Positions 6,671 to 64,000 of a DNA stretch of 64,000 nt are shown here, one piece after another (within the stretch, counting starts at the first letter, position 1; every line of letters begins with the position of its first letter). The DNA lies in assembly GCF_044704955.1 (NCBI RefSeq), contig NC_091980.1, positions 128,526,001 to 128,590,000 on the forward strand, given 5' to 3'. Under the pieces are notes generated by a model, which saw only the letters and a program-made list of their open reading frames with translations, was not told the origin of the DNA and made no database searches. This stretch comes from Pristiophorus japonicus (Eukaryota). The position numbers were made by a program, and so were the translations under genes.

Positions 6671-6680
6671 CTCCACCACA

Positions 6681-6748
6681 ACTCTTTTAAAGGAGACAAA
6701 TCAACATTAAGTCAAGTGACCCCCGATCTGGGGGACACTCCAAACACA
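6681..6748 (-). mobile_element. Tx1-family 3'-terminal fragment
   Basis: ACTCTTTT..CCCCGATCTGGGGGACACTCC, the same architecture as the array unit ends at 32.9-34.7 kb. Confidence 0.7.
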
Positions 6749-10294: not shown

Positions 10295-10988
10295 GGTCGC
10301 CCTTTCAGTTCTGTGCGTAGGGGTTTCCTCTCCGGGCTGCTCCTGCACACTCTCAACTTTGCCATCCTTGTCTGCCATCCGGACACGCCTTGGTGCACCA
10401 TCTTGCCACCGGTGGAGGCGGGGATCCCCACTGGAGTGCTCTCTACGCCGGAGTCCTCTCTTTATTTATTGGGGACTTGACCTGGAGGGTGTTGCGTGGG
10501 GCAGTCTCGTGCAATCGATTTTTAAGTCGGTTCACGGATTCCCAGGCCGCCTGTAATTTCTGTGGTCTGGAGGACGCCCTGTTCCATATTTATGTCAAAT
10601 GTATGAGTTGCAGCCCCTCCCTCAATATTTGAAGGGGCTGCTCCTCAAATTCGGTTGCACGTCTGTGCAAAGCTCCTGATCTTTGGGCATCCTGTGTGGC
10701 AGGGAGTGGTCAGGTCGGAAGGACTCCTCGTAGGTCCTGGTCCAGGTAACGGGCGGTTGAGAGGGTCGTTCAGCCCAACTGCCTGCCTCTCTTCCGCGGT
10801 TACATTCGAGTGAGGGGTGTCCCTGGAAATGGAGTGAGAGGTGGGCAGCGGAGGGACTGAATGCATCATCACCCCAGCAAACAATTTTAATTTGACCTTT
10901 TATTGTTCAGAAAGTTTTATTGGTTAATTTTTCAGTTCTAGTGCCCCTTTAAAGGGGACAATTGATTTATTGTTTTACAAAAGTAGTT
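10295..10988 (+). mobile_element. Tx1-clade LINE 3' fragment (old)
   Basis: DLTWRVLRGAVSCNRFL..ACNFCGLED..FHIYVKC zinc-knuckle region, followed by the Tx1 ORF2 C-terminus and 3' UTR. Confidence 0.8.
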
Positions 10989-11106
10989 GCAGACTCACTG
11001 ATCTGTTTGGATGTTGCATCAAACACGCAGATACCTGCAAATGACCAACCCACAGAACCATTCAGAACTATTGAAAAGACACTGACTCGCAAACAACAGA
11101 GGATGT

Positions 11107-11583
11107 CAAGGTGGCCATTATCTGGTCCGATCAGAGCGCGGTCGATGGGATGATCTCTCCGTCTGCCTGCCTCTCTTCCACGGCTATGTTCGTACCCAGG
11201 TGTCCCTGGAGAGTGTCTGCCGAGGCTTGAGGCTTGAGGCTTGAGGCTTGAGGCTTGAGGCTTGAGGCTTGAGGCTTGAGGCTTGAGGCTTGAGGCTTGA
11301 GGCTTGAGGCTTTCCGTGACCGATGGGCACCAGAGGGACTGGAGTGCAGCGTAGATACAGGGAACTAAAAGGTTTTATGTTCGTATTGTCACCAGTTGGA
11401 CTTATTATTTATTCCCCCTTATAAAGGGGGCAATTATGATTTAAATTTTTCAAATAGCTGATTTAATCATCCCAATTAGGGCAGTGGGCCTATCTGCGAG
11501 TTGGCACAGGCTCAATGAGCCGAATGGCTTTCTTCCCTGCTGCAACTATTCTATGATTCTATGAATTGATTTGTCTAAAGAGT
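11107..11583 (+). mobile_element. Ancestral Tx1 3' fragment upstream of ferritin copy 1 (with heptamer expansion and CR1-tail insert)
   Basis: Orthologous fragments at 21729-22040, 34983-35292, 47418-47722; ends AAAGAGT. Confidence 0.75.
11222..11312 (+). repeat. (GAGGCTT)13 perfect tandem repeat
   Basis: Direct reading; paralogous positions have one unit. Confidence 0.95.
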
Positions 11584-11884: not shown

Positions 11885-13967
<2,083 letters not shown>

Positions 13968-15169: not shown

Positions 15170-15740
15170 GTGGGCATCAGTGGAAAGGCTAGCATTTATT
15201 GGCCCCTCCCTAATTGCCCATGGAAACGTGGTGGTAAGTTGCCTTCTTGCAGTCCTGTGGTGAAGGTACATCCACAGTGCTGTTACGGAGGGAGTATCAT
15301 GATTTTGACCCAACGGCGATATATTTACAACTTGCAGGGGAAATTGCAGGTGATAGTGTTCCCATGCACATGGTGCCCATGTCCTTCTAGTTGGTAGAGC
15401 TCGCGGGTTGGCAGGTGCTGCTGAAGAAGCCTTATTGAGTTGCTGCAGTGCATCCTGTCGATGGTACGCCGGTGGTGGAGGCAGTGAATGTTGACGGTGA
15501 TGGATGGGGTGCCAATTAAGTGGGCTGCTTTGTCAGGGATGGTGTTGAGCTTCTGGGGAATTGTTGGAGCTGCACTCATCTAGGCAAGTGGAGAGTATTC
15601 CATCGCACTCCTGACTTGTGCCTTGTAGATGGTGGAAAGGCTTTGGGTTATCAGGAGGTGAGACACTCAACACAAAATACCCAGCCTCTGACCGGTCTTG
15701 TTGCCACAGTATTTGTGTGGCTGGTCCAGTTAAATTTCTG
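15170..15740 (-). mobile_element. HER1-like LINE 3' fragment
   Basis: Homologous to 42170-42780 (KLNTIPDKAAHLIGT). Confidence 0.75.
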
Positions 15741-16268
15741 GCCTTCAGTCCCACGCTACTGATCTTTGGGCATTCTGTGCGAAGGCGAGTGGGTAGGTCG
15801 GAAGGCTTCCTTGTAGGACTGCTGCTGGGCATTGCCAAGGTGACCATTAACTGGTCCAGGCAGCGGGCGGTCGAGGGGGTCGTTCAGCCTGACTGCCTGC
15901 CTCTCTTCCGTGCCTACATCCGGGCCAGGGTATCCCGAGAGATGGAGCACGCGGTGTCCACCGGTGCGATCGCATCCTTCCGCGAGAGATGGGCGCCGAG
16001 GGACTGGAGTGCATCATCACCCCCGGCAACCAAATTTTAATTTGATTTTATGTTTTAAAGTTTAATTTGTTTTCATTGCCGGGATTTTAGTGTCCCCCTC
16101 CACTTTTATAGGGGGCACTTGTAAAATATTGAATTTTAATGCCCTTAAAAAAAAACACAAAAAAAACCCCCAAAAAAACAAAAAAAGAGGGCTGTTATAA
16201 GTGTCTGGAGTGTCCCCCAGATCGGGGGGCACTCGATCTAATGTTTATTTGTACTCCCCAAAAAGAGT
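15741..16268 (+). mobile_element. Tx1 LINE 3' end (young tail) within a ~390-bp duplication
   Basis: FSPTLLIFGH..GLLLGIAK..DCLPLFRAYIRARV..FRERW (Tx1 ORF2 C-terminus); 3' UTR hairpins; ends AAAAGAGT. Confidence 0.85.
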
Positions 16269-16520
16269 TATTGACGGTGATGGATGGGGTGCCAATCAAG
16301 TGCCCTGCTTTGTCAGGGATGGTATTGATCTTCTGGGGAATTGTTGGAGCTGCACTCATCTAGGCAAGTGGAGAGTATTCCATCGCACTCCTGACTTGTG
16401 CCTTGTAGATGGTGGAAAGGCTTTGGGTTATCAAGAGGTGAGACACTCAACACAAAATACCCAGCCTCTGACCGGTCTTGTTGCCACTGTATTTATGTGG
16501 CTGGTCCAGTTACATTTCTG

Positions 16521-16795
16521 GCTTTCAGTCCCACGCTACTGATCTTTGGGCATTCTGTGCGAAGGCGAGTGGGTAGGTCGGAAGGCTTCCTTGTAGGACT
16601 GCTGCTGGGCATTGCCAAGGTGGCCATTAACCAGTCCAGGCAGCGGGCGGTCGAGGGTCATGTTCATCCCTACTGCCTGCCTCTATTCCATGGTTACGTT
16701 CAATCCAGGGTGTCCACCGGTACGCTCGCGGCCTTGCGTGAGAGGAGGACGCCGGCGGGACTGGAGTGCACCATCACCCCCAGGAACAGAATTTA
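16521..16795 (+). mobile_element. Tx1 LINE fragment (older resident copy)
   Basis: Same 5' junction as 15741 but diverges after ~16660. Confidence 0.75.
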
Positions 16796-21395: not shown

Positions 21396-22119
21396 CCGTT
21401 TTGGCCTGCAGTCTATTTCATTGCTTCTAAAATTTAATGATAAAAAACACGAACTGAACATCCTATGGTCCCTTCCACATTCTAGCTGATGTGTGTACTG
21501 GTGCTCACGAAACTTGGAAGTGATGGAGTATCTGAGCACTTGTGTTTGACACATTGATCACGAGCACTTTGAATTCATCTGACCCACTGTTGGTTCCTTT
21601 GCACACTCACTGATCTGTTTGGATGTTGCAGAAAATCGCAGATACCTTCAAATGACCAACCCACAGAACCATCCAGAACTATTAAAAAGACACTAACTCG
21701 CAAACAACAGAGGATTCAATGAACCTTTCAAGGTGGCCATTAACTGGTCCAGGCAGAGCACGGTCGATGGGGTGTTCTCTCTGTCTGCCTGTCTCTCTTC
21801 TGCGGCTATGTCCGTGCCCGTGTGTCCCTGGAGAGGGACCACGCGGTGTCTGCCGGTATGTTGGAGGCTTTCCATGAACGGTGGGCACCAGAGGGACTGG
21901 AGTGCAGCGTGGATACAGGACACTAAATTATAATTTTAAAAGTGCTTGTTAGTTTTGTCATATTTGGAACTTATTGTTTATTCATCCTTATAAAAGGGAC
22001 ATTTGTTTTAATTTTTTCCCAATTGATTAGCCGAAAGAGTAGAGGATTGCTTTCAACCTGTGATTCTGAATATTTGAACTGTGTTTGAGGAAAGTTAGGA
22101 CAGTTGAGATCCTCATTGA

Positions 22120-25055: not shown

Positions 25056-26479
25056 ACTGTCTGACTGACTGGATCAAGATTATTGTGTTTAGTACTTGTA
25101 TGTATAATAACTGAGACCCCTGTTCTGTAAGGAATGATGGCTTGTGATGTTGGACAAAGATCTGAGACTGAGGCTCTTGGTGTGAAATGTAACATTACTG
25201 TAAATAAACTGTTCAACATTGGACTGGGTTTTGTCTCCTTGTATGTTTGAGTGGTTGTTAAATTAAAAATAACATGACTGACATCAGACAAGAATTACAC
25301 TGAGTTGTGCAACAGTGTTATGGGTTTCAGTTGTATGAAATTTGTTTTTCCTCTGGGGTTTGAGTTGTATATTCAGACACTTGTTGCAGGGTGTGAAATG
25401 GTTGAGGGTGTGTTTAGACCGTTAACAGCCACATGAGATATTGACTGAGGAGAGACAAATCATGGTCAGAGGTAGGTTTTAGGGAGTGTCTTAAATAGGT
25501 TCAGAGAGGGAATGGCAGAGCGTGGTATTTAGTCAGCAGATTAAAAATACCTGTTCCCACGAGTGAACATTCTCTCTACCATTACATAACTGATAACTCC
25601 ATACCACAAAATAAAGGTTGCTGTAACAAGTTAAACACCAGCAATATTTCCTACTCAATCAGTCTTACCATTTCAGATCAGTAAAGGAAAAAGTCCAGGA
25701 TTAGCATCTTATTAAATAAGTATATTGGCCCTGGAATTAGCAGTTTGTATTCAGTCACTGCTGCAGATCCTGTTCAGTTATTATTGCAGGTTGTTTAGTA
25801 ACTGAACTCACCACTGCTGCTGTAGACTTCCTGTTAAGCTTTGTAAGCAGACTAGCAGCTGCTGTACAGACCACCAGTGTCCGAGTGCATTGAACCCCGG
25901 GGACAATTGGATGAGGAGGGAAAGCAATAATTGGTATCAGCTTGCTGTCACAGCTTCATTGGTTAGTGTGGATACCCTCGTGTGGTGGTTCTGGGACAGC
26001 TTCTCTTCTGCCCGCTCCGATCATGACCGAATAACTTGGCCTCCTGATCAATGCTCACATGAATGCCTGCCAGTGCCGCTGGACTCCATTTCCCACAGTT
26101 ATACACCAATCCCTTTCCCTCACTCGCAGATCCACGATGCAGTTCCCCTTGTCCTCACCTTCCTTACCAGGAGCGTCCACATTCAACGAATCATCCTCTG
26201 CCTTTTCTGCCACCTCGGGCAACCCGACTCGCTAACACAACTTCCCTTTCCCTCCCCTTTCAGCATTGTGAAGTGACCTGTCTGGCCGTGACACTCTGGT
26301 CCTCAATCACCCAAAAGACCCCCTTCCTTTCCCACGGTACATTCCTGTGAAAATGCAGGAGATACTTATTGAATCGGATGCTCCTTTTCCCACTGTTCAG
26401 AGCACCAAACACTCCTTCCAGTTCAAACAGCAAATTAATTGTACTCCTTGCAATTTAGTATATTGTTTTCGCTGCTTGA

Positions 26480-29400
26480 TGTCATGTATCTTACATTATT
26501 ATATATAACTGTATCCTAACATGCTATACATGACTATAATAAGATATGACCTGTAACCACCAGCATACCTTACCACCAGGGGTGCACTGGCAAGAGACAG
26601 GTATATAAGGACAGGTCTGAGGCAAGTGCAGCATTCCAGAGCTGTGAAATAAAGGTGCAGGTCCAGAGTGACCTTGACTTCACAACATGCCTCGTGTGAA
26701 TCTGTACTGAGGGGACAGGACTTTACAGTGGCGACGAGTTACGGGATTACAGAATCCACAGAATGGCGAACAACGGATCAGATGAAAAGTACAATGCGGG
26801 AGACAATTGGGAGGACTTTATAGAAAGGCTCCAGCAAAGCTTGTAAGCAAAGACTGGTTAGGCAACGATAAGGCAGACAAGAGAAGAGCCCATCTCTTGA
26901 CCAGCTGTGGCTCGAAAACATCTGCTTTAATGAAGGATCTGTTGGCACCCGAGAAACCAGCAAGCAAGTCGTTTGAAGAATTGAGCACACTGGTAAGAGA
27001 CCACCTGAAGCCAGCGAGCAGCCTACACATGGCCAGACACAGGTTCTACAACTACAGACGCTGTGTGGGCCAGAGCATACCCGACTTCGTGGCAGAACTT
27101 CGGAGGTTGGCTAGTTTATGTGAGTTCTCCGATGAACTGAGGAGAGAAATGCTGAGAGACTTTTTCATTGAAGGAATAGGCCACGCAGACATATTCTTAA
27201 AGCTCATAGAGACCAAGAACCTGACCTTAGAGGCAGCAGCACTGGTTGCACAGATATTTTTGGTAGAGGAAGAAGAAACGAGGTTGATTTACAATGCAGG
27301 TACGACAACTAACAAAATATCGGAACAAGAAGTTCACAGCACTAAACAAGCTGCTACCCACACACACAGGCTCTCGACAGCAGGCAGAAGCCATCAAGGG
27401 CCACAGGAACGGCCGTTCACACCTCATCAACCCACAATGCGAGCAATCAACTACAAACTGAGAGAAGCTCAAGAGAGATCAGCCAGACGCAGAACAGGTC
27501 TGTGCTGGCGGTGTGGGGGTGGGCACTCATCAAGGGGATGTCGATTTCGGCAGGCTGTTTGCAGAAATTGTAAATATACAGGGCATTTGGCCCGCATGTG
27601 CAAGAAAACGGCAGCTCGGCTGGTATACGAATCAGATGGGTCGGAAAGCGGACCAGAAGATGGTGGGGACAGTACCCGGGACACCGATGTACAGCGGGTC
27701 AACACGATCAATGGCTGCTGCTCCTACAACAGGACGCCTCCTATAATGATGAGGGTCCTACTCAACGGGATATCTGTTAACATGGAGCTGGATACGGGAG
27801 CGAGTCAATCTCTCATGGGCGCTCAACAATTTGAACAACTGTGGCCGCATAAAAGAGACAGACCAAAACTCACAAGGGTCGACACCAAATTAAGGACCTA
27901 TACCAAAGAAATCGTACCAGCCCTCGGCAGCGCCATGCTCTCTGTCACACACAAAGAGACAGTAAACCGACTTCTCCTGTGGATTGTCCCCAGAGACCCC
28001 CCAGCACTGCTGGGGAGAAGCTGGCTGGCAAAACTAAACTGGAAATGGGATGATGTCCATGCTATGTCACTAGAGGAACGGACCTCCTGCTCAACAGTTA
28101 TAAAGCGATTTGAACATCTCTTTCAGCCAGGTGTGGGCACTTTCAAAGGGGCCAAAGTCAAAATCTAGATCACACAAGATGCTAGACCGGTCCATCACAA
28201 GGCCAGAGCTGTACCCTATGTGATGAGGGAAAAGATTGAACACGAACTAGACAGGCTTCTGCGGGAAGACATTATATCACCTGTGGAATTTAGCGACTGG
28301 GCAAGTCCCATCGTCCCAGTACGAATCTGTGGGAACTACAAATCTACCATAAACAGAGTCTCCCGACAGGACCAGTACCCGCTGCCCAGAGCGGAGGACT
28401 TATTTGCCTCATTGGCTGGAGGTAAACTTTTCTCAAAATTAGACCTCACATCTGCGTATATGACGCAAGAATTGACCGAGGAATCCAAGCTACTCACCAC
28501 CATCAACACACATCGAGGCCTTTTCATGTACAATCGATGCCCATTCGGCATCAGGTCGGCAGCTGCTATATTCCAGCGCAATATGGAGAGTGTGCTCAAG
28601 TCCATCCCGGGGACAGTTGTATTTCAAGACGACATACTTATCACGATCAGGGATACCGACTCCGATCTCCGTAATTTGGAGGAAGTACTGAAGCAGTTGG
28701 ATCGGGTAGATCTACGAGTCAAGAAATCCAAATGCCTGTTTCTTGCACCCGAGCTTGAATTTTTGGGCAGAAGGATTGCCGCTGATGGAATCCGGCCAAC
28801 AGAGTCCAAAACAGAAGCAATTTGCCTGGCACCCAGGCCCCGGAATGTCTCAGAACTGCATGCCTTTTTCGGGCTAATCAATTACTTTGCAAACTTTATG
28901 CAGAACTTAAGCACGCTGCTGGAGCCTCTCCATGTGCTACTCAGGAAGGGCTGCGATTGGTTTTGGGGGGACGCCCAGGAACGCGCCTTCAATAAGGCAC
29001 GCAACCTTCTGTGTTCCAACAGTGTTCTGACTTTCTATGACCTAGGTAAAAAGCTAGTTCTCACATGCGATGTTTCAGCGTATTGGGTCGGGTGCGTTTT
29101 GCAACATGTCAATAGTGCGGGCAAATTACAACCCATAGCTTATGCCTCCAGGTCACTTTCGTGGGCAGAGCGCGGGTACGGAATGGTAGAGAAGGAAGCG
29201 CTCGCGTGCGTGTACGGTGTCAAAAAGATGCACCAATACTTTCTCGGGGCCGAGTTCGCATTAAAAACCGACCACAAGCCCCTCACATCCCTCCTATCTG
29301 AGAGCAAGGCAATAAACGCCAACGCCACGGCGCGAATTCAACGGTGGGCACTCATTCTGGCGTCCTACGACTATACCATAAGGTACAGACCAGGCACAGA

Positions 29401-31137
29401 CAACTGTGCCGACGCGCTTAGCAGGCTACCCCTGGTGACCACGGAAGGGTCTGATGAACAGAACTGTGTGATAGTCATGGCAATCAATGCCTTTGAGTCC
29501 ACAGGCTCGCCAAATCAGAGCCTGGACGGCCAGTGACCCCACGTTATCCTTCGTAAAAAGATGTGCCCTAACCGATGACTGGGCAGAGGCTCGCGATGCC
29601 TGCCCCGAGGAATTAAAACCCTTTCACAGACGCATGCATGAGCTATCACTACAAGCAGACTGCCTGATGTGGGGCAGCCGAGTAGTCATGCCCCTGCGAG
29701 GCAGAGAGGCATTTGTCCGGGAGCTCCACCGCGAGCACCCGTAGATCGTTCTCATGAAGACCATGGCCAGATCCCACGTCTGGTGGCCTGGTATTGACAC
29801 AAACTTGGAGCTCTGCGTCCGAAGGTGCACCATTTGTGCCCAACTCAGCAATGCCCCCAGGGAGGCTCCATTGAGCCCCTGGCCTACCAAACCGTGGTCG
29901 AGGGTGCACGTAGACTATGCGGGCCCATTCATGAGCAAAATGTTCCTCGTAGTTATAGATGCATTTTCAAAGTGGATCGAGTGCACCATTTTAAACTCGA
30001 GCACAACCTCCACCACTGTGGAGAGCCTCGCAACCATGTTTGCAACGCACGGAATCCCTGACATATTGGTCAGTGGCAATGGTCCGTGCTTCACCAGCGC
30101 AGAATTCCAAGACTTTATAATTGACCACGGCATAAATCATGTCAAGACAGCACCGTTCTAGCCGGTCTCCAATGGCCAGGCGAAGAGAGCAGTGCAAATC
30201 ATTAAACAAGGCATGCTTAAAATCCAAGGTCCCACGCTGCAGGGTCGCCTGTCATGACTGCTACTGGCATGCAGATCTCGTCCGCACTCACTGACTGTGA
30301 TCCCCCCCGCGCAACTGTTGATGAAAAGGACTTTAAAAACATGACTCTCATTAATCCTCCCAGGCATGCACGAAATCTTTGAGGCAAAGCGCCGTAAGCT
30401 GACTGAGTACCATGACAGAAATTCAAGGGGGAGATGGAATGAGATAGGGGACAAAGTGTTTGTACTAAACTATAGCAGGGGTCCCAAATGGCTTGCAGGG
30501 ACAGTAACGGGCAAGGAAGGAAACAGGCTACTGGTAGTACAAATGGACAATGGCAAAACCTGGCGGAGGCATGTAGACCAAGTCAAAAGCAGATTTACCA
30601 ACAACACTGCGGAACCAGAGGCAGACTACAATATGGAACTCGCACCACACCTGGTGGACAGACAGAGGGGACAACCTGAGGAAAGGGCAATCCCAACAGA
30701 CAGCCCAGGTGAGTCAACAACAATCACACCAATCGAAACAGACAGCCCAAGCGAGATACCAGCAACCACACCCAAAGAAAAACAGACACCAAGGCAAACA
30801 GCTGAATCACAACTCAGACGCTCCAAGCAAGAGCGTAGACCACCTGAGAGACTGAACCTATAAAGACAATAAGACCTTGGGGGAGGGTGATGTCATGTAT
30901 CTTACATTATTATATATAACTGTATCCTAACATACTATACATGACTGTAATAAGATATGACCTGTAACCACCAGCATACCTTACCACCAGGGGTGCACTT
31001 GCAAGAGACAGGTATATAAGGACAGGTCTCAGGCAAGTGCAGCATTCCGGAGCTGTGAAATAAAGGTGCAGGTCCAAAGTGACCTTGACTTCACTATATG
31101 CCTCGTGTGAATCTGTACTGAGGGACAGGACTTTACA
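26480..31137 (+). mobile_element. Ty3/Gypsy LTR retrotransposon, full-length, lightly decayed
   Basis: LTRs 26480-26727 and 30891-31137 (TGT..ACA; ~8 substitutions + 1 indel by eye); PBS TGGCGACGAG at 26729; PPT GGGGGAGGG at ~30879; gag with zinc knuckles, protease LDTGA, RT FQDD, RNase H, integrase HVDYAGPF; several stops/frameshifts. Confidence 0.97.
26807..30863 (+). pseudogene. Gypsy gag-pol, disrupted
   Basis: ORFs 26807-28168 (gag-PR), 28220-29536 (RT-RH), 29754-30161 and 30366-30863 (IN), separated by stops/frameshifts. Confidence 0.9.
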
Positions 31138-31649
31138 GGCATGTGGCTATTTTAATCTCTTCCCCTCCAGAATACTGACTTTGGTTCAGTGGTGGCCTAA
31201 GATGGTCATAGCTGCAAGTCTAATCTTAGTGTTTAACTGGTTTTAAAGTTGGGTGTACTGGAGAAAGAGATTTAAATGTAATCTGGTTACGGTAAGACCT
31301 TGCCCCTCATGTTTGAACCACTTTGCCAAGGGCGTGCTGTTACAGTACAGAGTCTGCACCTTCTGAATAGACAACCCCCAAGAATTACTGCTGAGAGTCT
31401 TTCAATTTTGGGAACACTAGGAACGTGTTTGCTGAAGCAGGTTCCGATCCAAAGCACAAGGAACGTCCGATGAGGCCTCACTAAATTTATCTATCGTGTG
31501 GAAAGGAAAAATTGGGAACATAGTTGGGTATCTTAACGTAAACTGCTAATATATACACTGGACATAATTACCAGCCTCTGTGAACTAGGCCAATGTTCAT
31601 GGAGATTGAAAAGTGAAGAGTCAGCTTTTTTTCAAGCTGTATGTTAGGG

Positions 31650-32857: not shown

Positions 32858-34732
32858 GGTCCCCTCCACAACTCTTTTTTGGGGGAGACAAAATAAACAT
32901 TAGATCGAGTGCCCCCCGATCTGGGGGACACTCCATCCAGACACTTTTAACTGCCCTCATTTTTTATTTTTTTGTTTTTTGTTTTTTTTTGTGTTTTTTT
33001 TTGTGATTTTTTTTGGGGCATTAAAATCATATAATTTACAAGTGCCCCCTATAAAAGGGGAGGGGGACATTAAAACACGGCAATTAAAACAAATTCAACT
33101 TTAAAACATAAAATCAAATTAAAATTTGGTTGCCGGGGGTGATGATGCACTCCAGTCCCTCCGGTGCCCACCTCTCGCGGAAGGCCGCGAGCGTACCGGT
33201 GGACACCGCGTGCTCAGGTCCCCTCCACAACTCTTTTGGGTAGGAACAAAATAAACGTGAGATCAAGTGCTCCCCGATCTGGGGGACACACCAGACACTT
33301 AACTGCCCTTTTTTTTAATAAATGTTTTTTTTGGGTTTTTTTGGGGGGTTTTTGTGGGGTTTTTTTGTGATTTTTTGGGGGCATTAAAATCATATAATTT
33401 TCAAGTGCCCCCTATAAAAGGGGAGGGGGACATTAAAACACGGCAATTAAAACAAATTAAACTTTAAAACATAAAATCAAATTAAAATTTGGTTGCCGGG
33501 GGTGACAATGCACTCCAGTCCCTCCGGTGCCCCCCTCTCGCGGAAGGCCGTGTGCGTACGGGTGGACACCGCGTGCTCAGGTCCCGTCCACAACTCTTTT
33601 GGAGTTAACAATAAACATTAAATCATAAACATTAAATCGTGCCCCCCCGATCTGGGGGACAGTCCAAACATTTCCCAAGGCCTTTTTTTTTGTATTTTTG
33701 TAGGTTTGTTTTGTGTTCTTTTTTGGGCTCTAAAGCCATAATTTACAAGTGCCCCCTATAAAAGGGGAGGGGGACACTAAAAACCCGGTAATTAAAACAA
33801 ATTAAACTTTAAAACATAAAATCAAATTAAAATTTGGTTGCCGGTGGTGACAATGCACTCCAGTCCCTCCGGTGCCCACCTCTCGTGGAAGGCCGTGAGC
33901 GTACGGGTGGACACCACGTGCTCAGGTCCACTCCACAACTCTTTTTGGGGAGTACAAAATAACATTAGATCGAGTGCCCCCCGATCTGGGGGACACTCCA
34001 GACACTTATACCTGCCCTCTTTATTTTTTGTTGTTTTTTTTGTTTTTTTTTTTGTTATTTTTTTTTGTGTTTTTTTCCTTTTGTGATTTTTTTTTGGGCA
34101 TTAAAATCATATAATTTACAAGTGCCCCCTATAAAAGGGGAGGGGGACACTAAAGGTCCCCTCCACAACTCTTTTTGAGGAAAACATAATCAATTAAATC
34201 AAGTGCCCCCCGATCTGGGGGACACTCCAAACACTTTTCACGTGTCCTTTTTTTTGGTTTTTTTTGGTTTCCTTTGGTGATTTTTGTGTTTTTTTTTTGG
34301 GCACTAAAATCATAGTTGTTTTCCAAGTGCCCCCTATAAAAGGGGAGAGGGACACTTAAAATCCGGCAATTAAAACAAATTAAACTTTAAAACATTAAAA
34401 TTTGGTTGCCGGGGGTGACAATGCACTCCAGTCCCTCCGGTGCCCACCTCTCGCGGAAGGCCGTGAGCGTACGGGTGGACACCGCGTGCTCAGGTCCCCT
34501 CCACAACTCTTTTTGGGGAGTACAAAATAACATTGCATCGAGTGCCCCCCCGATCTGGGAGACACTCCAGACACTTATACCTGCCCTCTTTTTTTTTGTT
34601 GTTTTTTGTTTGTTTTTTTTTGGTATTTTTTTATTTTTTTTTCCTTTTGTGATTTTTTTTGGGCAATAAAATCATATAATTTACAAGTGCCCCCTATAAA
34701 AGGGGAGGGGTACACTAAAGGTCCCCTCCACA
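32858..34732 (-). repeat. Tandem array of six 5'-truncated Tx1 3' ends separated by the target repeat GGTCCCCTCCACA
   Basis: Target repeat at 32858, 33217, 33580, 33925, 34155, 34493, 34720; units ~215-350 bp; empty site GGTCCCTTCCACATTCTAG at ~21467 in the paralogous unit. Confidence 0.92.
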
Positions 34733-35371
34733 TTCTAGCTGATGTGTGTACAGGTGCTCACTAAACTTGGAAGTGATGGAGTATCTGAGTATTTATGTTT
34801 GACACATTGATCACCAGCAATTTGCATTCATCTGACCCACTTTTGGTTGATTTGCACACTCACTGATCTGTTTGGATGTTGCATCAAACCCGCAGATACC
34901 TTCAAATGACCAACGCACAGAACCATCCAGAACTATTAAAAAGACACTGACTCGCAAACAACAGAGAATTCAATTAACCTTTCAAGGTGGCCATTAACTG
35001 GTCCAGGCAGAGCACGGTCAATGGGGTGTTCTCTCCGTCTGCCTGACTCTCTTCCGCGGCTATATCCGTGCCCGGGTATCCCTGGAGAGGGAGCACGCGG
35101 TGTCTGCCGGTATGCTTAAGGCTTTCCGTGACCGGTGGGCGCCAGAGGGACTGGAGTGCAGCGTGGATACAGAGAACTAAATGATAAATTGAAAAGTGCT
35201 TATGTTAGTTTTGTCATGTTTGGAACTTATTGTTTATTCCCCCTTATAAAGGGGACACTTATGGTTTAAGTTTTTCCCAATGCCTAAAGAATAGAGGATT
35301 CATTTAAACCTGTGATTCTGGATATCTGAACTGTGTTTGAGGAAAGTTTACACAATTCAGATCCTCATTAA

Positions 35372-35643: not shown

Positions 35644-37793
<2,150 letters not shown>

Positions 37794-42169: not shown

Positions 42170-45100
42170 ATTGCGGAATGTGGACATCACTGGCAAGGCC
42201 AGCTTTTATTGCTCATCACTAATTGCCGTTGAGAAGGTTGTGTTGAGCCGCCTTCTTGAACCACTACAGTCCTTGTGGTGAAGGTACTCCTACAGTGCAT
42301 TTGGGAGAGAGTTCCATGATTTTGTACCAGCGACGATGAAGGAATGGCGATATATTTCCAAGTCAGGATGGTTTGTAACTTGGATGGAAATACGGTGTTC
42401 CCATGCGCCTGCTGCCCTTGTCCTTCTAGTTGTTAGAGTTCGCGGGTTCGCAGGTGCTGCTGAAGAAACCTTGGTGATTCCTGCATTGCAGCTTGCAGAT
42501 GGTGCAGCCATGGTACGCTGGTGGTGGAGGCAGTAAATGTTGAATGTGCCAATCACGTGGGCTACTTTGTCATGGATGGTGTTGAGCTTCTTAAGTTTTG
42601 TAGTAGCTACAATCATCCAGGCAAGTGGAGAGTATTCCATCACACTTCTGACTTGTGCCTTGCAGATGGTGGAAAGGCTTTGGGGAGTCAGGTGGTGAAA
42701 CACTTGCCATAAAATTCACAGCCTCTGACCCGCTCTTGTTACCACAGTATTTATGTGACTGGTCCAGGTACGTTTCTGGTCAATGGTGACTCCCAGGTGT
42801 TGATGGTGGGCGATTCTGTGATAGTAATGCTCTTGAATGTTAAGGGCAGATGGTTAGACTCTCGCTTGTTGGAGATAGTCATTGCCTGAACCTTGTGTGG
42901 TGCAAATGTTACTTGACATGTATCAGCCCCACACTGAATCTCATCCAGGTTTCTGCATTTGCCATGGACTGCTTCATTTTCTGAGGAGTTGCGAATGTAA
43001 CTGAACACTGCAATCATCAACAAACATCCCCACTTCTGACCTTATGAAGGAGGGATGCTCATTGATGAAGCAGTTGCTGATGGTTGGGCCTCGGACACTG
43101 TCCTGAGGAACTCCTGCAGTGATGTCCTGTGGCTGAGATAATTGACAACCATCTTCCTTGGTGTTAGGTATGACTCCAGCCAGTGGAGAGTTTTCGCCCT
43201 GATTCCCATTGACTTCAATTTTACCAAGGATCCTTGATGCCACACATGGTCAAATGCTGTCTTGATGTCAAGGACCGTCACTCTCACCTCACATATAATT
43301 CTGCTCTTTTGTCCGTGTTTGAACCAAGGCTGTAATGAGTACTGCAGATGAGTGGTCCTGGGCGAACCTAAACTGAGCATCAGTGTACAGCATATTAGTG
43401 AGTAAGTACTGCTTGATAACACTGTCGACTACACCTTCCATCACTTTGCTGATGGGTGAGAGTAGACTGATGGGGCAGTAATTGGCTGGATTAGATTTGT
43501 CCTGGCTATTTTGGGCAAGACATACCTGGACAGTTTTACTCATTGTCGGGTAGATGTCAGTGTTGCAGCTGTACTTGGAACAGCTTGGCTAGAGGCACGG
43601 TTCGTTCTTGCTGCATCTAGTGAGCTCAGCCGTTTCTTGATATCGCATGAAGTGAATTGAATGGTCTGAAGATTGGCTTCTGTGATGGTGGGGACCTCAG
43701 CAGGAGGCTGAAATGGATCATCCATGAGGCACTTCCGGCTGAAGGTCGTCGCAAGTGCTTCAAGCTTGTCTTTTGCACTCGTGCTGGGCTCCGCCATCAT
43801 TGAGGATGGGGATATTAATGAAGCTTTTTCCTCCAGTTAGTTGTTTAATTATCCACCATCATTCATAACTGGATGTGGCAGGAATGCAAAGCTTTGATCT
43901 GATCCGTTAATTGTGGGATCGCTTAGCTCAGTCAATCAACAGAAACTATTTCCAATGGCTGAAAGGTCAATTATTAGAAGGCACAGAATTAAGGTGATTA
44001 GCAAAAGAACCAGAGGCGACATGAAGAAACATTTTTTAACTCAACGAGTGATTTAGGATATGGAATGCTCTGCCTGATAGGGTGGTGGAAACAGATTCAA
44101 TAGTTGAATGAGCTGACACAGATTCGATGGGCCGTATGGCCTCTCCCTGGAATTTAGCTCTTTTGTCCATGTTTGGACCAATGCTGTAATGAGGTCTGGA
44201 GCTGAGTGGTCCTGGCAGAACCCAAATGAGCATCAGTGATCGGGTTATTGGTGAGTAAATAACACTTTGTTAGCACAATTGATGACACCTTACATCACTT
44301 TGCTGATAATTGGGAGTAGACTGATCGGGGAAGTATTTGGCCGAATTTGCTTTGTCCTGATTTTTGCGGACAGGACATACCTGGGCAGTTTTCCACTTAG
44401 TCGGGTAAATGCCAGTGTTGTAGCTGTACTGGAACAGCTTGGCTCGAGGCACGGCTAGTTCTGGAACACAAGTCTTCAGCACGACAACCGGAATGTTGTC
44501 GCAGCCCATCGTCTTTTCTATCTCCAGTGCACTCAGCCATTTCTTGATATCACGTGACGTGAATTGAATTGGCTGTAGACTGGCTTCGATGATGGTGGGG
44601 ACCACAGCAGGAGGCTGAGATGGATCATCCATGAGGCAATTCTGGCTGATGATGATTGCAAACGCTTCAGCCTTGTCTTTTGCAGTGACGAGCTGGGCTC
44701 CTCCATCATTGAGGACAGTGATATCCATGGAGCCTCCTCCTCCCGTTAGTTGTTTAATGGTCCATCAATATTCACGACTGGATGTGGCAGGACTGCAGAG
44801 TTTTGATTTGAGCCATTGATTGTGGGATTATTTAGCTCTGTCTATAGCATGCTGCTTCTGTTGTTCAGCATGCATATATTCCTGTGTTGCAACTTCCCCA
44901 GATTGGCACCTCTATTTAGGTACAACTGGTGTTGTTCCTGGCATTCTCTTCTGCACTCCTCCTTGAACCAGGTTTGGTCCCTTGCCTTGATGGTAATGAG
45001 TGAACAATATGCCGACCATAAGGTTACAGATTTTGGTGGAATTCAATTCTGCGGCTGCTGATTGCCCACAGCACCTCCTGGATGCCCAGTTTTGAGATGC

Positions 45101-46022: not shown

Positions 46023-47265
46023 GGGCTCAATTTTGCCCAACCCGTTTTTTGGCGCACTTACCTTAAATGCGGCGACTTTGCACGCTGGAAACGGTGCCGG
46101 AAAAAATTCGCCCCATCCTGGCCGCTCTTCCGAGTCCCCGGAGTCCCAGCGTGGCGTGCATTGTACAATGGGGGGTGGACCAACAGGCCAGCGCAGAAAG
46201 CATTGCCGGCAGCTGCGCGCATGCGCAGTGAAGTCTGCACGCATGCTCCTGCCATCCCAGCCTGTCCTGCGGGCTGTGAGCTGGACCTGATGTTCGCAGC
46301 CCCTATCCCCGGCCAAAGGGACGGCCTGATCTCGTCGGACCCTATCCCCGGCCGAGTGGCCTCCCACACCGGCCGGCCGGCCCGCTTTGTTCGCGGGCGA
46401 GGTAGGACTTGGTTTTATTTTTTATTTATTGATAGTTGTGCTTGAGAGTTTTCATTGGTGGGAGGGGGAAGAGAAGGAGAGTTTTTTTGGCGGGGGGGGA
46501 AAAAGAACGTTTGGGGGCGGGGGGAGAAAGCGTGTTTTGATGCGGGGCTGTGGGGGAGAAAGAGTGTTTTGATGGGGGGGGCGGAGAGAAAGAGGATTTT
46601 GAAGTGGGAGGTGGGGGGAGAAAGAGTGTTTTGATCGGGGAGGGAGAGAAAGAGTGTTTTGATAGGGGCGCAGAAAGGGAGAAAGAGTGTTTTGATCGGG
46701 GAGGGAGAGAAAGAGTGTTGTGATCGGGGAGGGGAGAGAAAGAGTGTTTTGATCGGGGCGCAGAAAGGGAGAAAGAGTGTTTTGATGGGGGGGTGGGCGG
46801 GGGTGGAGAAAGAGTGTTTCGATGGCCGGGGGGAGAAGAAAGAGTGTTGTGATGGCGGCGGGGTGAACTTTAAAAAAAAAACTTGATTCTGTCATAAAGG
46901 CATAAAAATTTGTTGTTGATTGATTGCTTATTACTTTTTGTGATTTGTTTAGTGCTTTGTAAGTCTTGGTGCTTTAAATGTACTAACCTGCACCGATTTC
47001 TTAACTGCCCGCAATGTTTTTCAGAGCTGGCCACATATGCTGACCTAAGTCGATTTGGAGTAAGTTTTTGCTGGCCAAAGTGGAATAAATGGTGTAAGTG
47101 TCTGGGAACGCCACCTTTTGAAAAAAAAACTGAACTCAAAAAAATCGCACCAAACTGACTTACTCTGGAGCAAATTTTGGGGGGAAAATGGCATGTTTTA
47201 ACTTACGCCAGAAAAAACAACTTACTCCAAAAAAATTGATGCAAATCATTGTCAAAATTGGGCCC
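46023..47265. mobile_element. PIF/Harbinger-like non-autonomous element (same family as 22549-23425) with internal minisatellite
   Basis: Ends GGGCTCAATTTTGCCCA / GTCAAAATTGGGCCC; shared subterminal sequence (TTTTTGGCGCACT; TTTCAGAGCTGGCCACATA); degenerate 3-bp TSD ATG/ACA. Confidence 0.8.
46555..46860 (+). repeat. Purine-rich minisatellite with core GAGAAAGAGTGTTTTGAT
   Basis: About 9 imperfect ~30-42 bp units. Confidence 0.85.
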
Positions 47266-47801
47266 ACAACCACTATGTTTTGATGTTACAACAAACCCAC
47301 AGATACCTGCACATGACCAACCCAATGAACGATGGGGATCCTCATACACGCACTGAAGCATCCAGAACTATTAAAAAGACACTGACTCGCAAACAACAGA
47401 GGATTCAATTAACCTTTCAAGGTGGCCATTAACTGGTCCAGGCAGAGCACGGTCGATGGGGAGTTCGCTCCATCTGCCTGCCTCTCTTCACAGCTATGTC
47501 CATGCCCCGGCTGTCCCTGGAGGATTGTCTGCTGGTATGTTGGAGGCTTTCCGTGACAGGTGCGCACCAGAGGGACTGGAGTGCAGGGTGGATACAGGGA
47601 ACTAAATTATAATTTGAAAAGTTTTTATGTTACTTTTGTCACATTTTAACTTATTGTTCAATCCCCTTTATAAAGGGGACACTTATGGTTTAAGATTTTC
47701 CCAATTGATTTGCCTAAAGAGTAGGGGATTCATTTAAACCTGTGATTCTGGATATCTGAACTGTGTTTGAGGAAAGTTAGGACAATTTCGATCCTCATTG
47801 A

Positions 47802-58458: not shown

Positions 58459-61400
58459 TGTTATGTCCACAATAAATCCACAGGACTGCATTGTAAGCTC
58501 AAACTGTTGTGACCTTGGTCTCTTTATTCAGACTCCAGACTGAGGATGCAGCATGGTGAATCCCCTTTTATAACTGCTTGGCCCAGGGTGCACAGGTGAC
58601 CCTTAGGTCTCCCACAGGTGTGCTGCCTCATGGCAAGTCTTATATTTTGGTAAGGTTTACATACATACATAACATCACTCCCCCCAAAGTCTTATGTACA
58701 AGTTATTTGTAAGTTGAGACGATCTGGCGCCCCACGTCCCCGGGTCGATCACCTGGGTTGAAGTCCTGATGTGGCGGGTTCATCGATGGTGAAGTTGATG
58801 GTGTTAGTGGGTCGTTGGGGTCAGGTTCTTTCACAATGGTTCCTGGTTATCTGTAGTTCGCAGTTTGGGCTTGTCCAAATGCTTTACTCATTAGCGCGGT
58901 ACATGGTTTCATAATAAACGACTCCGTTTTCATCACATACACTCCGTTACCCCCTTGGCTAAAGCGGTGCTAGCAGCCCAACTGGGGCCCTGAACATGGT
59001 CTACATCACTTAATCTGATGTCGTGTGGAGGGGCCGTGCAATTATGGTGCATTCTCTGCTGACGGCACATAGAAGGCTCGGTTCTGAGTGATTCTGTCTG
59101 GTGACTGCGTTGCACACAGGCTAGCCGTGTCCATAGGGAGTCTACCGTGACACGCGTGGTGCTAGGTTTAGTGATTTGGGCTGCCTCCTACAAGCTATTG
59201 TCGCTGTCCCTGAGGTCTGGCAAGCCCAGGATGGCCACAATGGCCTTGAGACTTTGGGTAGAGGCGCGGGGCCTAGTGGTCCCCGTGGAACTTCGGCCGT
59301 AATATGGGGGCCCCGGACCACTGACTGTGTGTAGCCACCCTGCCTTACTTTGCAACGTTGGGATGGGTCTTTCTTCTCTGTTCTGTTTGGAGAAAGAGTC
59401 AGACTGAACACTGTGAGCTTAAAGTATTGTGTGAACTTAGTTTTTTATTGCAGGTCTCCAGAGTGCCTCCCCAAACTGTGAGGCCTCCTAAATACCTGTG
59501 CTCCCAAGGGATTATGGGATCCAGGGGATGAACCCTCTGATGGCTGTACAGAGCATATACAAGTATACATATATAACAACACTCTCCCCCAAAGCCAACA
59601 GTGTAACTATTTACAATGTGAGTCGATCTGGGGCTCTTCTTGCCCTGGTTCATCGTCTCGGTGTGAAAGCTGGTGTTAGAGAATCAATTGTTGGGCCCTC
59701 ACTGGTCTGCCATGCAGCTAGCCTTGCTGGGCTGCCTAATGTGGTCGGTCCTGTTGGGCTGCTGCGGATGATGGGTTCTGCTTCGTGGTCAACCGTGGTG
59801 CTGGTTGGCACTGGCGTGTATGTTGGGGGGTCAAAGAAGGTAGGGTCCAAAGTGGATTGCTCAGGATAGTCCGTTAATCTGAGTTTTATTTGGTCCAAGT
59901 GTTTCCGGTGAATGAGTCCATTTGAAAGTTTGACCCGAAACACCCTGCTTCCCGCTTTGGCCACAACAGTGGCGGGAAGCCACTTGGGATCTTGGCCATA
60001 ATTCAATACAAATACAGGACCATTGATTTCAATTTTGCGTGACACATTCATGGTATGCACTTTGTTGAAGCCGCCTGGTCTCTACCTGTTCATGTAGATC
60101 AGGATGAACTAACGAGAGCCATGTCTTAAGTGCTCTTTTCTTGAGCAGTTCAACAGGTGGGATCCCAGTGAGCGAGTGGGGTCTCTGGCAGTAGCTAAGC
60201 AGGACTCGGGATAGGCAAGTCTGCAGTGAGCCTTCCGTTACCCTCTTGGTTTGCACTGCTCTCTCTGCCTGATCATTGGACATTGGTTTAAACGCAGCAG
60301 ATGTGACATGTTTGATCCCTTGCGGGTCATGAATTCTTTGAACTCAGCACTGGTAAAACATGGCCCGTTGTCGCTCACCAGCACATTGGGTAGGCCGTGT
60401 GTGGCAAACATGGCGCGCGGGCTTTCATTAGTGGCAGCGGACGTGCTAGCCGACATTGTCTCACATTCAATCCATTTGGAGTACGCATCTACAACGACAA
60501 GGATCATTTTAGCCAAGAACGGGTCTGCATAGTCGACATGTACCCTAGACCACGGTTTGGTGGGACAAAACCATAAACTGAGCAGCACCTCCCTCGGTAC
60601 TTTGCTTAACTGCGAACATGTATTACATCTGTGCACACAGGACTCAAGTCCGCATCAATACCGGCCCACCACACGTGGGATCTGGCTATCGCTTTCATCA
60701 TTACAATGCTTGGGTGGGTACTGTGCAGGTAACTGATGAAGGTGTCTCTGCACTTCTTAGGTACCACTACATGATCGCCCCACAGAAGGCAGTCTGCCTG
60801 TATAGACATTTCATCTTTGCACCGCTGGAACGGCTTTATTTCTTCCTGCATTTCTACAGGGACACTGGACCTGCTCCCATGAAGCACACAGTTTTTGACG
60901 AGGAACAATAGGGGATCCTCGCTCGTGCAGATTTTGATCTGCCGGGCAGTGACGGGTGAATGCTCACTCTCAACTGCTTCCATAACCATGGCTAAATCTG
61001 CGGGCCGCGCCATTTCCATCCCCGTGGTGGGCAATGGCAGTCTGCTGAGAGCATCAGCGCATTTGTCTTTGCCTTGCCTGTGGCGGATGGCGTAGTTTTA
61101 TGTGGACAATGTGAGCACCCATCGCTGGACGCAAGCCGATGCAATCGTATTTATCCCTTACTCTCGGAAAACAGGGATATGAGTGGCTTATGGTCAATTA
61201 CCAATTCGAATTTTAGCCCAAACAGATATTGATGCAATTTCTTTACCCCATAGACATACGCTAATGTTTCTTTTTCAATCATGCTGTCGGCTCGCTCAGC
61301 CTTCGACAGACTCCTGGATGTGTAAGCAACCAGTTGCAGTTTCCCAAAATCATTAGCTTGTTGCAATACACACTCGACGCCATATGATGACGCATCACAT

Positions 61401-64000
61401 GCTAGTACCAAATGCTTACATGGAATATATAACACAAGCAATTTGTTTGAGCATAACAATTTTCTCGTTTTTATGAAGGCATTTTCTTGGCTTTTGCCAC
61501 ATGCCCATTAATCCCCTTTTCACAGTAAGACATACATTGGTTCTAACAGTGTGCTGAGACCCGAAAAGAAGTTACCAAAGTAGTTCAGGAGTCCTAGAAA
61601 CGACCGCAGCTCTGTCATGTTCTGTGGCCTCGGTTCTTCTCGATTGCCCCCTTCTTTGAGTTGGTGGGCCTGATGCCATCCGCCGCAATCCTGCTTCCCA
61701 AGAACTCCACTTCAGGCTGCAGGAAAATGCACTTCTAGCGTTTTAACCTGAGCTCATGCGGTTGAGTTGAGTAAGAACATTCTACAGGTTCTGCAGATGC
61801 TTGACTGTGTCCCAACCTGTGACCAAGATGTCGTCCTGGACGACCACGATGTGCAGGACCGACTTCAGTAAGCTTTCCATGTTTTTCTGGAATATCGCCG
61901 CAGCTGATCGAATTCCAAACGGGCATCAGTTATAAATAAAAAGACCATTGTGCGTGTTGATGCAGGTGAGGCCCTTAGATGATTCCTCCAGTTCCTACAT
62001 CATATAGGCTGAAGTCAGATCCAGCTTTGTGAACAGCTTTCCTCCCGCCAGCGTTGCAAAGAGGTCGTCGGCCTTTTGGTAGTGGGTATTAGTCCTGCGG
62101 GGAGAAATAATTAATAGTTACTTTGTAATCGCCACAGATTCTGCCGGTGCCGTCTCCCTTGAGGACTGGGACAATCGGACTGGCCCACTCGTTGAACTCG
62201 ATTGGTGAAATGACACCCTCTCTTTGCAGCTGGTCTAGCTCAATCTCTCCCCTTTCTCTCATCATGTACGGTACTGCACTCGCCTTGTGATGGATGTGTT
62301 GCGCCCCCGAAATTAGGTGGATCTGCACTTTTGTTCCTTGGAATTTCTCGATGCCTGGTTCGAACAGCGAAGGAAATTTGTTCAAGACCTGGGCACACGA
62401 AGTGTCATCAGTGGGCAATAGTGCTCGGACGTTGTCCCAGTTCCAGCGTATCTTTCCCAGCCATCTCCTGCCGAGCAGCGTGGGACCATCGCCCCGGTAC
62501 CACCCACAGTGGTAGGTTATGCACCGCTCCACCATAGGAGACCTTTATGGTAGTACTGCCGATTACAGGAATCAGTTCTTAGTTTCGTGCAAACTGGAAT
62601 TAAGACTGGCCTTGAGGCCTTGCTGCACACAATTTTCGAAAGTCTTTTTTCCCATGTGGGACTGGCTCGCGCCTGTGTCCAGCTCCATTTACACCGGGAG
62701 TCCATTTAGTTCAACATTCAGCATTTACGGGGGACACTTTGTAGTGAATGTGTGCACCCCATGTACCTCTGTCTCCTCGGTCTGGGGCTCTGGTTCATCG
62801 TGATCCTCCGTGGATCTGTCCTTATCTACAACATGGTGGTTTGCAGGATTAACAGGATTTGCAGCTCTCCTGCACATACGTTGGAGATGTCCCATTGTTC
62901 CACAGCCCATGAAAACGTACCCTATGAATTGGCATGAATGGAAATGATGATCACCCCCGCAGCGCCAACAAGGTGTTAATGGACTAGCATTCATCACCCT
63001 TGATGGTGGAGACATCTGCGGACGTGCAGCTGCAAGCATGTGTGACATGCCCTGTACATTGCAATTTGAAAACAGCATCACTTTGTTCACAGTACTTGTA
63101 GCAGCACTCATGTGCTGAGAGATTTGCTTAGTATTGTCACTGGTGGCAATTAACGCCTGGGCTATCGCTATGGCCTTGTTCAAGTTTGGGGTCTCGACAG
63201 TCAAAAGTTTGCGAAGTATGGTTTCGTGGCCAATGCCAAGTACAAAAAAGTTTCTGAGCATGTGCTCCAAATGTCCTTCAAATTCGCAATGTCCTGCAAG
63301 ACGTCTTAGCTCGGTGGCATAACTCGCCACTTCCTGACCTTCAGAACTTTTGTCGGTGTTGAACGGGTATCTCGCCATTAGAACACTTACCTTTGGGTTC
63401 AAATGCTCTCAGACCAGTGTGCACAAATCATCTTATGATTTCTCCGTGTGTTTCGCTGGAGTAAGCAAATTTTTCATGAGGCCATATGTCGTTTGGCAGT
63501 GTTCTCATCTCCATCTAGCTCGTTGGCTCCGAATTATTGGTCGAGTCGCTCCACATAAGTTTCCCAATCATGTCCCTCCGAGAATTTCTCCAGGATGCCC
63601 ATTGTTCTCTGCATCTTTGGGTTCACTATCTGTATCTCGTCGCCAGTTGTTATGTCTGGAGAAAGTGTCAGACTGAACACTGTGAGCTTAAAATAAAGTG
63701 CAACCTTAGTCTTCTATTTCATGTCTCCAGAGCGCCTCTCAAACCTGTGAGGCCTCCTTAAATACCTGTGCTCCCAAGGGATTATGGAATCCCTTGGGAC
63801 TCCAGGGGATGAGCCCTCTAGTGGCTGTACAGAGCATATACAAGTATACCGATATAACAGTCTCTGCGATGGCTAGGTTGCCACATCCCGTCAAGCAGTT
63901 CACCTTTGGCAACTGGTAACCTGGGATCCTGGCATGTCCAGGTCCTAGGCTGGGGGGCCATTACGGTTGACCCCTTGCTTTCTAGGAATTCCACGACCGT
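58459..64000 (-). mobile_element. Host Gypsy element (3' LTR 58459-58674, internal 58675-59378, resumes at 63860 to window end)
   Basis: TGTTATG..ATAACA LTR, PPT rc TCACTCCCCCC, degenerate integrase C-terminus (GPSW..). Confidence 0.7.
59379..63859 (-). mobile_element. Ty3/Gypsy LTR retrotransposon nested in another Gypsy; related to the 26.5-31.1 kb element
   Basis: LTRs 59379-59578 and 63648-63859; PBS TGGCGACGAG (rc 63636-63645); TSD TTCTC/GTCTC; gag CWRCGG, RT RICGDYK, IN HVDYADPF. Confidence 0.93.

Follow-up and report, generated by a model that had tools for sequence, protein, structure and literature searches.

In the 28S rDNA of Drosophila, tandem R1 elements form when a new copy enters the target-site duplication (TSD) that has been regenerated at a resident's 5′ end (Stage and Eickbush 2009, PMC2718515). 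SINEU-3 elements were found as tandem insertions at a target that they share with crocodilian Tx1 families (Kojima 2015, PMC4494074). Tandems of transposable elements (TEs) that arise by double insertion are described as precursors of satellites, and distinct 5′ truncations are taken to mark independent insertion (McGurk and Barbash 2018, PMC5932611). Finally, chimeric L1 elements have been explained by SDSA-like annealing of the cDNA (Gilbert et al. 2005, as cited in PMC8087252 and bioRxiv 10.1101/2024.08.27.596794).

The locus described here occupies positions 32858 to 34732 of the window, i.e., the whole 64-kb stretch of DNA that was analysed, and consists of six minus-strand Tx1 3′ fragments interleaved with seven copies of a 12- to 13-bp target. 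Like the R1 arrays, it is composed of head-to-tail non-LTR copies with a TSD between them; the accessible text on R1 does not describe copying of a neighbour's junction and ascribes identical D. melanogaster junctions to the amplification of one event (PMC2718515). With SINEU-3 it would share the target preference of the Tx1 clade, and it does share sequential insertions that sandwich a TSD, whereas the SINEU-3 copies are SINEs of almost full length that sit in a transposon target, and the available portions of that paper mention for them neither inherited truncation junctions nor chimeric units (PMC4494074). The TE tandems, too, include non-LTR copies in tail-to-internal arrangement whose junction contains a duplicated target, but contrary to the truncation rule set out in the accessible part of that study, independent RNAs in the present array share one truncation (PMC5932611). 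As in chimeric L1 insertions, the 3′ end would stem from an RNA and the 5′ part plus flank from a genomic homologue or nearby DNA, with genomic sequence being duplicated; as far as the citing papers relate them, those insertions are single, rare human events, with a CDKL5 donor 230 kb away, whereas here the donor would be the adjacent resident, the nick re-used, and the event repeated. The array combines and iterates two known processes, tandem insertion of the R1/Tx1 type and formation of chimeric L1. Full-text literature searches, with a coverage that takes in few subscription papers and Repbase notes, returned no report of arrays in which neighbour copying is iterated and truncations are inherited, and the accessible parts of PMC1920257 and PMC5105311 contain nothing on a neighbour-copying mechanism.

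The array lies approximately 0.9 kb upstream of the third of four ferritin copies, in vertebrate DNA rich in fragments of LINEs, SINEs, and LTR retrotransposons. Its target copies are located on the minus strand at 32858..32869, 33217..33228, 33580..33591, 33925..33936, 34155..34166, 34493..34504, and 34720..34731; five of the seven are exact, and those starting at 33580 and 33925 contain one mismatch each. The first copy is the original 3′-side TSD and adjoins the host flank, and the seventh adjoins the host flank on the 5′ side of the element, with the nick context intact. A search of the window for the target with up to two mismatches gave 11 matches versus 1.75 expected, a number reached in none of 100 shuffles. 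The units, numbered U1 to U6, are found on the minus strand at 32870..33216 (347 nt), 33229..33579 (351 nt), 33592..33924 (333 nt), 33937..34154 (218 nt), 34167..34492 (326 nt), and 34505..34719 (215 nt), resulting in unit periods of 359, 363, 345, 230, 338, and 227 along the array. Tx1 copies of the window outside the array are designated T15, T16, D6, D10, F21, and F35. The same 9-nt motif terminates all six units as well as T15 and D6 (6680..6747, minus strand, a dispersed 68-nt Tx1 3′ end with a beta-type tail that served as an outside comparator), and the element ends in this fixed motif without poly(A). The copies are thus truncated at the 5′ end, have an intact common 3′ end, and are flanked by TSDs. 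Tandem Repeats Finder, when applied to the window, missed the array as a whole; its output at this place was confined to T-tracts and a 14-bp duplication in U3. An assembly artefact was considered and rejected, as read error is far exceeded by the substitutions between units and the empty paralogue is itself intact.

The identity of the element was deduced from the C-terminus of its ORF2, which in U1 comprises the last 33 codons (33117-33215, minus strand). Compared with YTX2 of Xenopus, D10 showed 49% identity over 59 amino acids, T15 37% over 83, and U1 42% over 26. By tblastn, the copies of the window map to residues 1081 to 1292 of Xenopus YTX2, and a profile calculated from 10 of 63 T15 homologues gave three matches, YTX2_XENLA among them (E 1.9e-33). 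A predicted protein of Pristis pectinata contains a homologous Tx1 segment, which, together with the style of the repeats, makes a cartilaginous fish a likely host. On the strength of the ORF2 homology, the element is Tx1-like and probably belongs to the Tx1 clade of non-LTR retrotransposons, the window holding only the ORF2 C-terminus and the 3′ untranslated region (3′UTR). Other searches were less informative: a direct protein search with the 84-residue T15 fragment yielded no match, the ESM Atlas only unnamed matches below 0.9, and Pfam, for D10, a zf-RVT match that was weak and below the cut-off (E 0.0026), with noise or no match for the two other fragments. Among 11 of the 63 T15 homologues submitted to Pfam, one showed a weak RVT_1 match, one was a dynein gene model bearing the fragment, and nine were blank. 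Rfam, at gathering thresholds, detected no match in the whole window. Near the Tx1 3′ end, a stem-loop is predicted on the minus strand at 32870-32950 in U1 and at 34167-34245 in U5 (z of -4.57 and -3.55 versus shuffles), and this stable structure is a candidate recognition signal for the reverse transcriptase. The conserved 3′UTR block upstream of it folds no better than shuffles (z of -0.85), and the same applies to the tail of U3 (z of -1.12). With respect to the context of the putative nick, the sites of the array and of T15 agree at seven of eight bases and D6 has the four downstream bases of the array, a comparison comprising three sites only.

Only two 5′ junctions occur among the six units. 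U1, U2, U3, and U5 are joined to the target at the identical base, and the shared junction includes one T, a base that is G in T15 and F35, both outside the array; a CpG-type change is present near it in U3. A second, shorter breakpoint is common to U4 and U6. In this respect the array departs from the R1 type, in which copies are likewise separated by a regenerated TSD, as its units lack individual 5′ junctions. In the neighbouring ferritin unit, the paralogous target (21467..21478, minus strand) is empty, with one mismatch and continuous flanks, which differ from those of the array at 44 of 336 and 122 of 1,074 positions. The array is therefore younger than the gene duplication. With the same 9-nt end motif in all units, T15, and D6, the target duplication, as seen against this site, comes to 12 bp plus one ambiguous base; the base is counted as ambiguous because the dispersed copy at 6680 suggests an element end ..GAGTT. 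An earlier note on this DNA had described the seven target copies, two of them with one mismatch, alternating with six minus-strand Tx1 3′ ends, the break common to U1, U2, U3, and U5 and the different one of U4 and U6, and the empty paralogous site at ~21467. All of this was borne out, by the coordinates, the shuffles, and the similarity to YTX2 for the first claim, by the shared T among other features for the second, and by the continuous flanks of the one-mismatch site for the third.

For comparison of the units, we distinguished segments A (ORF end), B (3′UTR up to the conserved block), C, D (an A-rich tract), and E (the terminal ~80 nt). A and B are referred to as body, C and E as tail; D was left out of the substitution counts. 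Between the four long units, the bodies differ by 5 to 11 substitutions in 168 to 178 columns (3 to 6%), the tails by 10 to 20 in 98 to 103 columns (10 to 20%). Specifically, body and tail values were 8/178 versus 20/98 for U2/U3, 5/168 versus 15/100 for U2/U5, 7/169 versus 14/98 for U3/U5, 11/178 versus 20/100 for U1/U3, 8/168 versus 14/103 for U1/U5, and 7/178 versus 10/103 for U1/U2. The contrast had p<0.05 in five of these six non-independent pairs (Fisher), U1/U2 giving p=0.068, and identity steps at a level of 11/500 permutations or fewer were present in four of five array comparisons, the step of U1/U2 being weak (11/500). U4 and U6 differ by 5/140 and, in the tail, by 4/104, without an identity step (347/500 permutations), and the independent control pair U1/T15 showed no step either (11/176 versus 9/104; 264/500 permutations). 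As U4/U6 differ at only 4/104 tail positions and U1/T15 is stepless, the tail is not hypermutable in place. The divergence along the units is not uniform, as it would be in a satellite or minisatellite, except in U4/U6.

According to the earlier note, the tails differ markedly among U1, U2, U3, U4/U6, and U5. This stands for U3 and U5, whose tails are 14 to 20% from those of the other long units, is weaker for U2 (10/103 from U1), and is overstated for U1 and U4, which are separated by 4 indel events and by 2 substitutions in 103 columns. U1 and U4 carry alpha-type tails, U2 a divergent alpha-like 3′ end, U3 a beta-type tail, and U5 a beta-like one. Within a narrow range of ages, the presumed order of the tails (alpha, alpha-like, beta, alpha, beta-like) does not amount to a clean succession of subfamilies of the kind proposed. 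The array had also been likened to a repeat-spacer array. In CRISPR arrays, a short repeat is duplicated with each polar addition of sequence; there, spacers are unrelated and a dedicated integrase and a guide function exist, whereas the units here are homologous retrotransposon ends, and no integrase, leader, or guide function was seen. The likeness is therefore formal only. Nothing suggests a function for the host, and the array is best regarded as the by-product of a selfish element.

The bodies form a mosaic. In segment A, four of four informative sites unite U2, U3, and U5 against U1 and T15, whereas in segment B two of two unite U1 and U2 against U3, U5, and T15; U2 accordingly groups with U3/U5 in segment A and with U1 in segments B and C. 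In segment E, four columns unite U3, U5, and D6 against U2 and the alpha-type tails, and one unites U2 with U5 and D6. U3, in which the 5′ ~74 to 140 nt are U2-like, thus combines segment A of U2 with another B and tail, as copying of the downstream neighbour predicts. Its identity to U2 drops in a step from 11/191 to 27/105 differences (0/500 permutations). The 5′ part of U5 is U3-like (3/97), and the block U6 plus U5, aligned with U4 plus U3, shows 15/335 and then 20/105 differences (0/500 permutations); the order U6-U5-U4-U3 is what a single long duplication predicts. The change-points of U3/U2 and U5/U3 both lie where the conserved 3′UTR block ends, at unit nt ~192, so these steps partly reflect subfamily conservation and are not crossover maps; the comparison includes no independent beta-type body as a control for the step at this position. 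Moreover, U3 and U5 are sisters in the body tree as well as in the tail tree, which makes their incongruence only a matter of degree. In segment A, U2 is similar to U3, its neighbour on the upstream side, and not to U1 on the downstream side. A simple model can accommodate this only if the switch came very early, if mutations followed later, or if a heteroduplex was converted, and the copying may here have run in either direction.

A second locus was found in the window, on the plus strand at 15491-16794. It consists of a host segment X of 254 bp (15491..15744), T15 (15745..16269), X again (16270..16524), and T16 (16525..16794), with T15 and T16 sharing their 5′ breakpoint. X is part of another LINE-like repeat, which continues unbroken upstream of the first X, and no Tx1 remains there. 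T16 is the resident, its 3′ end having been replaced by another repeat. The intact, alpha-type 3′ end of T15 joins precisely at the start of the second X, at a site that equals the nick context of the array in seven of eight bases. The 254 bp of host DNA and 133 bp of the resident Tx1 are duplicated with 13/387 differences (10/254 plus 3/133), and T15 then diverges from T16 at 31/136 positions; the change-point at 15878 was reached in 0/1,000 permutations. In the control comparison, T15 and D10 differ by 20/100 before and 20/123 after the change-point, and hence the 5′ part of T15 is not simply more conserved. The duplication at the second locus, 387 bp long and with a divergence of 3.4% that is near that of U4/U6, starts at a reverse-transcription junction and stops, still in register, within a homologue already resident. 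At both loci, the 5′ part and flank correspond to a donor and the 3′ part to another RNA, as in chimeric insertions. A self-comparison of the window (same strand, within 4 kb, array and a minisatellite excluded) produced five rows, two of which represent this locus; two others are the pair 43297-43936 / 44151-44845, and the last is a 119-bp match at 80%. The pair, one LINE segment, was considered as a third case and rejected, as it is stepless with 13 to 22% divergence in each of seven blocks. By eye, the T15/T16 5′ junction (15735-15750) seems to lie within a short similarity of X to the upstream codons of the element as present in D10, hinting that this family joins its 5′ ends by homology.

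In our view, these structures are probably the outcome of repeated target-primed reverse transcription at one site, mostly resolved by copying the 5′ junction and target of the downstream resident. The founder U1 would have inserted with a 12- to 13-bp duplication, and the intact target thereby regenerated on its 5′ side is seen in the array. The Tx1 endonuclease would then have nicked the outer target again, and a new RNA would have been reverse transcribed there, the tails revealing several sources. In an SDSA-like step, the cDNA would anneal to the resident just downstream and be extended through its 5′ junction and the target up to the nick; the common 3′ ends, the inherited junctions, and the duplications ending in homologous sequence are direct observations. 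The expected product is a target, the resident's 5′ part, and a new 3′ tail, placed upstream of the resident. U2 and U3 would have been made by such neighbour copying, whereas U4, with its own breakpoint, would be an ordinary truncated insertion. For U5, which would contain the youngest RNA, the cDNA primed at the outer target presumably annealed in U3, so that a stretch running from one target through U4 and the next target into the 5′ part of U3 was duplicated and U6 was created in the same event. The order of events would be U1, U2, U3, U4, and then U5 together with U6, with probably five RNA insertions rather than six, as U6 appears to be a DNA copy of U4 duplicated on arrival of U5. The second locus would have resulted from the same reaction with the resident located 254 bp from the nick. 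The suggestion of the earlier note that new RNAs re-use one nick and that the neighbour's junction and target are copied is thus retained as the best explanation, and extends to the second locus; it does not cover U1 as founder, U4 as conventional insertion, and U6 as DNA copy.

The same product, as seen in a single haplotype, could also arise in two steps, by conventional insertion at the regenerated target and later replacement of the 5′ junction through unequal crossover or gene conversion, either between a filled and an empty allele or between array units. Both steps are established, tandem insertion for R1 and expansion by unequal exchange for TE tandems, as far as the accessible parts of these reports go (PMC2718515, PMC5932611), U4 suggests that conventional insertion takes place at this very target, and the mosaic of U2 would follow naturally. 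By parsimony, however, four exchanges within 100 to 350 bp of 85 to 95% identity (one at 15.5 kb and three others in the array), each replacing its parent, are much to ask, and an exchange between two filled alleles would double every tail, whereas only that of U4/U6 is doubled. We therefore consider this route rather unlikely, although it is the most serious alternative to copying from the resident during insertion.

Much less credit is due to the idea that independent insertions were truncated alike because of a similarity between the end of the target and the part of the element immediately upstream of the breakpoint, which we regard as very improbable. The best local match of the target in the old copies does coincide with the breakpoint region (2/500 and 7/500 shuffles for F21, 71/500 and 92/500 for F35), and microhomology may have set the breakpoint of the founder. 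But there is no significant match in T15 (255/500, 317/500) or D10 (331/500, 233/500), the match in F21 depends on a base that differs in F35, and the real junction is ~5 nt out of register, with the same extra T in four units. Besides, the duplication of 254 bp of host DNA at the second locus and the copying of U4 would be left unexplained.

Equally improbable as a general account is that one or two founders were simply duplicated in tandem and that the tails came to vary by slippage and local hypermutation. Simple duplication does describe U4/U6, which are such a DNA copy (5/140), and is compatible with the modest difference between U1 and U2 and the sister position of the U3 and U5 tails. 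The tails of U2, U3, and U5, however, are 14 to 20% apart outside the A-rich tract, as opposed to 4/104 in U4/U6 (p=0.012, 0.0003, and 0.007). Those of U4 and U5 are nearer to dispersed copies than to other units: in segment E, U4 differs at 4/81 positions from T15, 17 kb away, and at 11 to 12 from U2, U3, and U5, and U5 at 5/66 from D6 and at 8 to 13 from the array units, two dispersed tails within 64 kb serving as the outside comparators. Furthermore, tail variation spares the stem-loop and the end motif (deviations from the majority base of a column, 7/179 versus 51/335, p=6e-5), which is the pattern that selected RNA lineages should show. Owing to this divergence, these affinities, and the sparing of the stem-loop, pure tandem duplication fails, and at least four RNA sources appear to have contributed tails. 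The alignment of the units called for in the earlier note speaks against plain duplication through the steps between body and tail, with only U4/U6 being uniform.

Least probable, by a small margin, is re-insertion of a pre-existing short non-autonomous family, or of read-through transcripts of the array, bearing the 5′ end and target, for although R1 transcripts of the melanogaster type carry 5′ target sequence and anneal to the site (accessible text of PMC2718515), no copy with this 5′ end or target, named as a refuting case in the earlier note, exists outside the array in the 64-kb window, other copies in the window have their 5′ ends at 525 and 68 nt from the 3′ end, D10 being longer still, and array transcripts would bring the parental tail instead of new ones.

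The 5′ joining of non-LTR retrotransposons is still argued from junction sequences, and both loci, as natural records from the germline, favour copying from an adjacent resident that is driven by homology. This route has been described for L1 events that are rare and either engineered or disease-causing. If such copying were common, shared 5′ truncations would cease to prove duplication at the DNA level, which would affect the reading of TE tandems and satellite precursors; LINE insertion would produce small host duplications and chimeric elements, confusing subfamily phylogenies and dating; and a pre-occupied target would offer a direct assay, of relevance for repeated insertion in retrotransposon-based gene delivery. 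Since four such events are inferred at two loci within 64 kb, copying from a nearby downstream resident might even be a routine pathway in this Tx1 lineage and not a rarity, a tentative proposal that we would not yet back. In that case, polar arrays with inherited 5′ junctions, and likewise long target-site duplications that end in homology, should be numerous genome-wide, host duplications would reach hundreds of bases, and arrays would log the order of subfamily activity.

The first exon of a ferritin gene is present in each of four paralogous units of the window, at 11885, ~22360, 35644, and 48045. The copy at ~22360 has no ATG and the one at 35644 has lost 2 bp where exon 1 ends, and for these reasons both look like pseudogenes; the latter copy, next to the array, appears to be frameshifted. 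An old plus-strand 3′ fragment of the Tx1 family is present upstream of all four copies (34983-35276, 21729-22020, 11104-11451, and 47418-47700) and therefore predates the duplications of the ferritin gene. In the first ferritin unit only, this fragment contains a perfect 13-copy tandem repeat of a 7-mer (11222-11312). D10 (~10304-10985), with a cysteine-rich ORF2 end and a shorter 3′UTR, abuts the same unit ~130 bp from the position equivalent to that of the array. Remnants of Gypsy-like LTR retrotransposons are located at 26477-31138 and 59400-63900, the first with 252-bp terminal repeats that are 96% identical, and a purine-rich minisatellite with a period of ~30/61 bp extends from 46512 to 46863.
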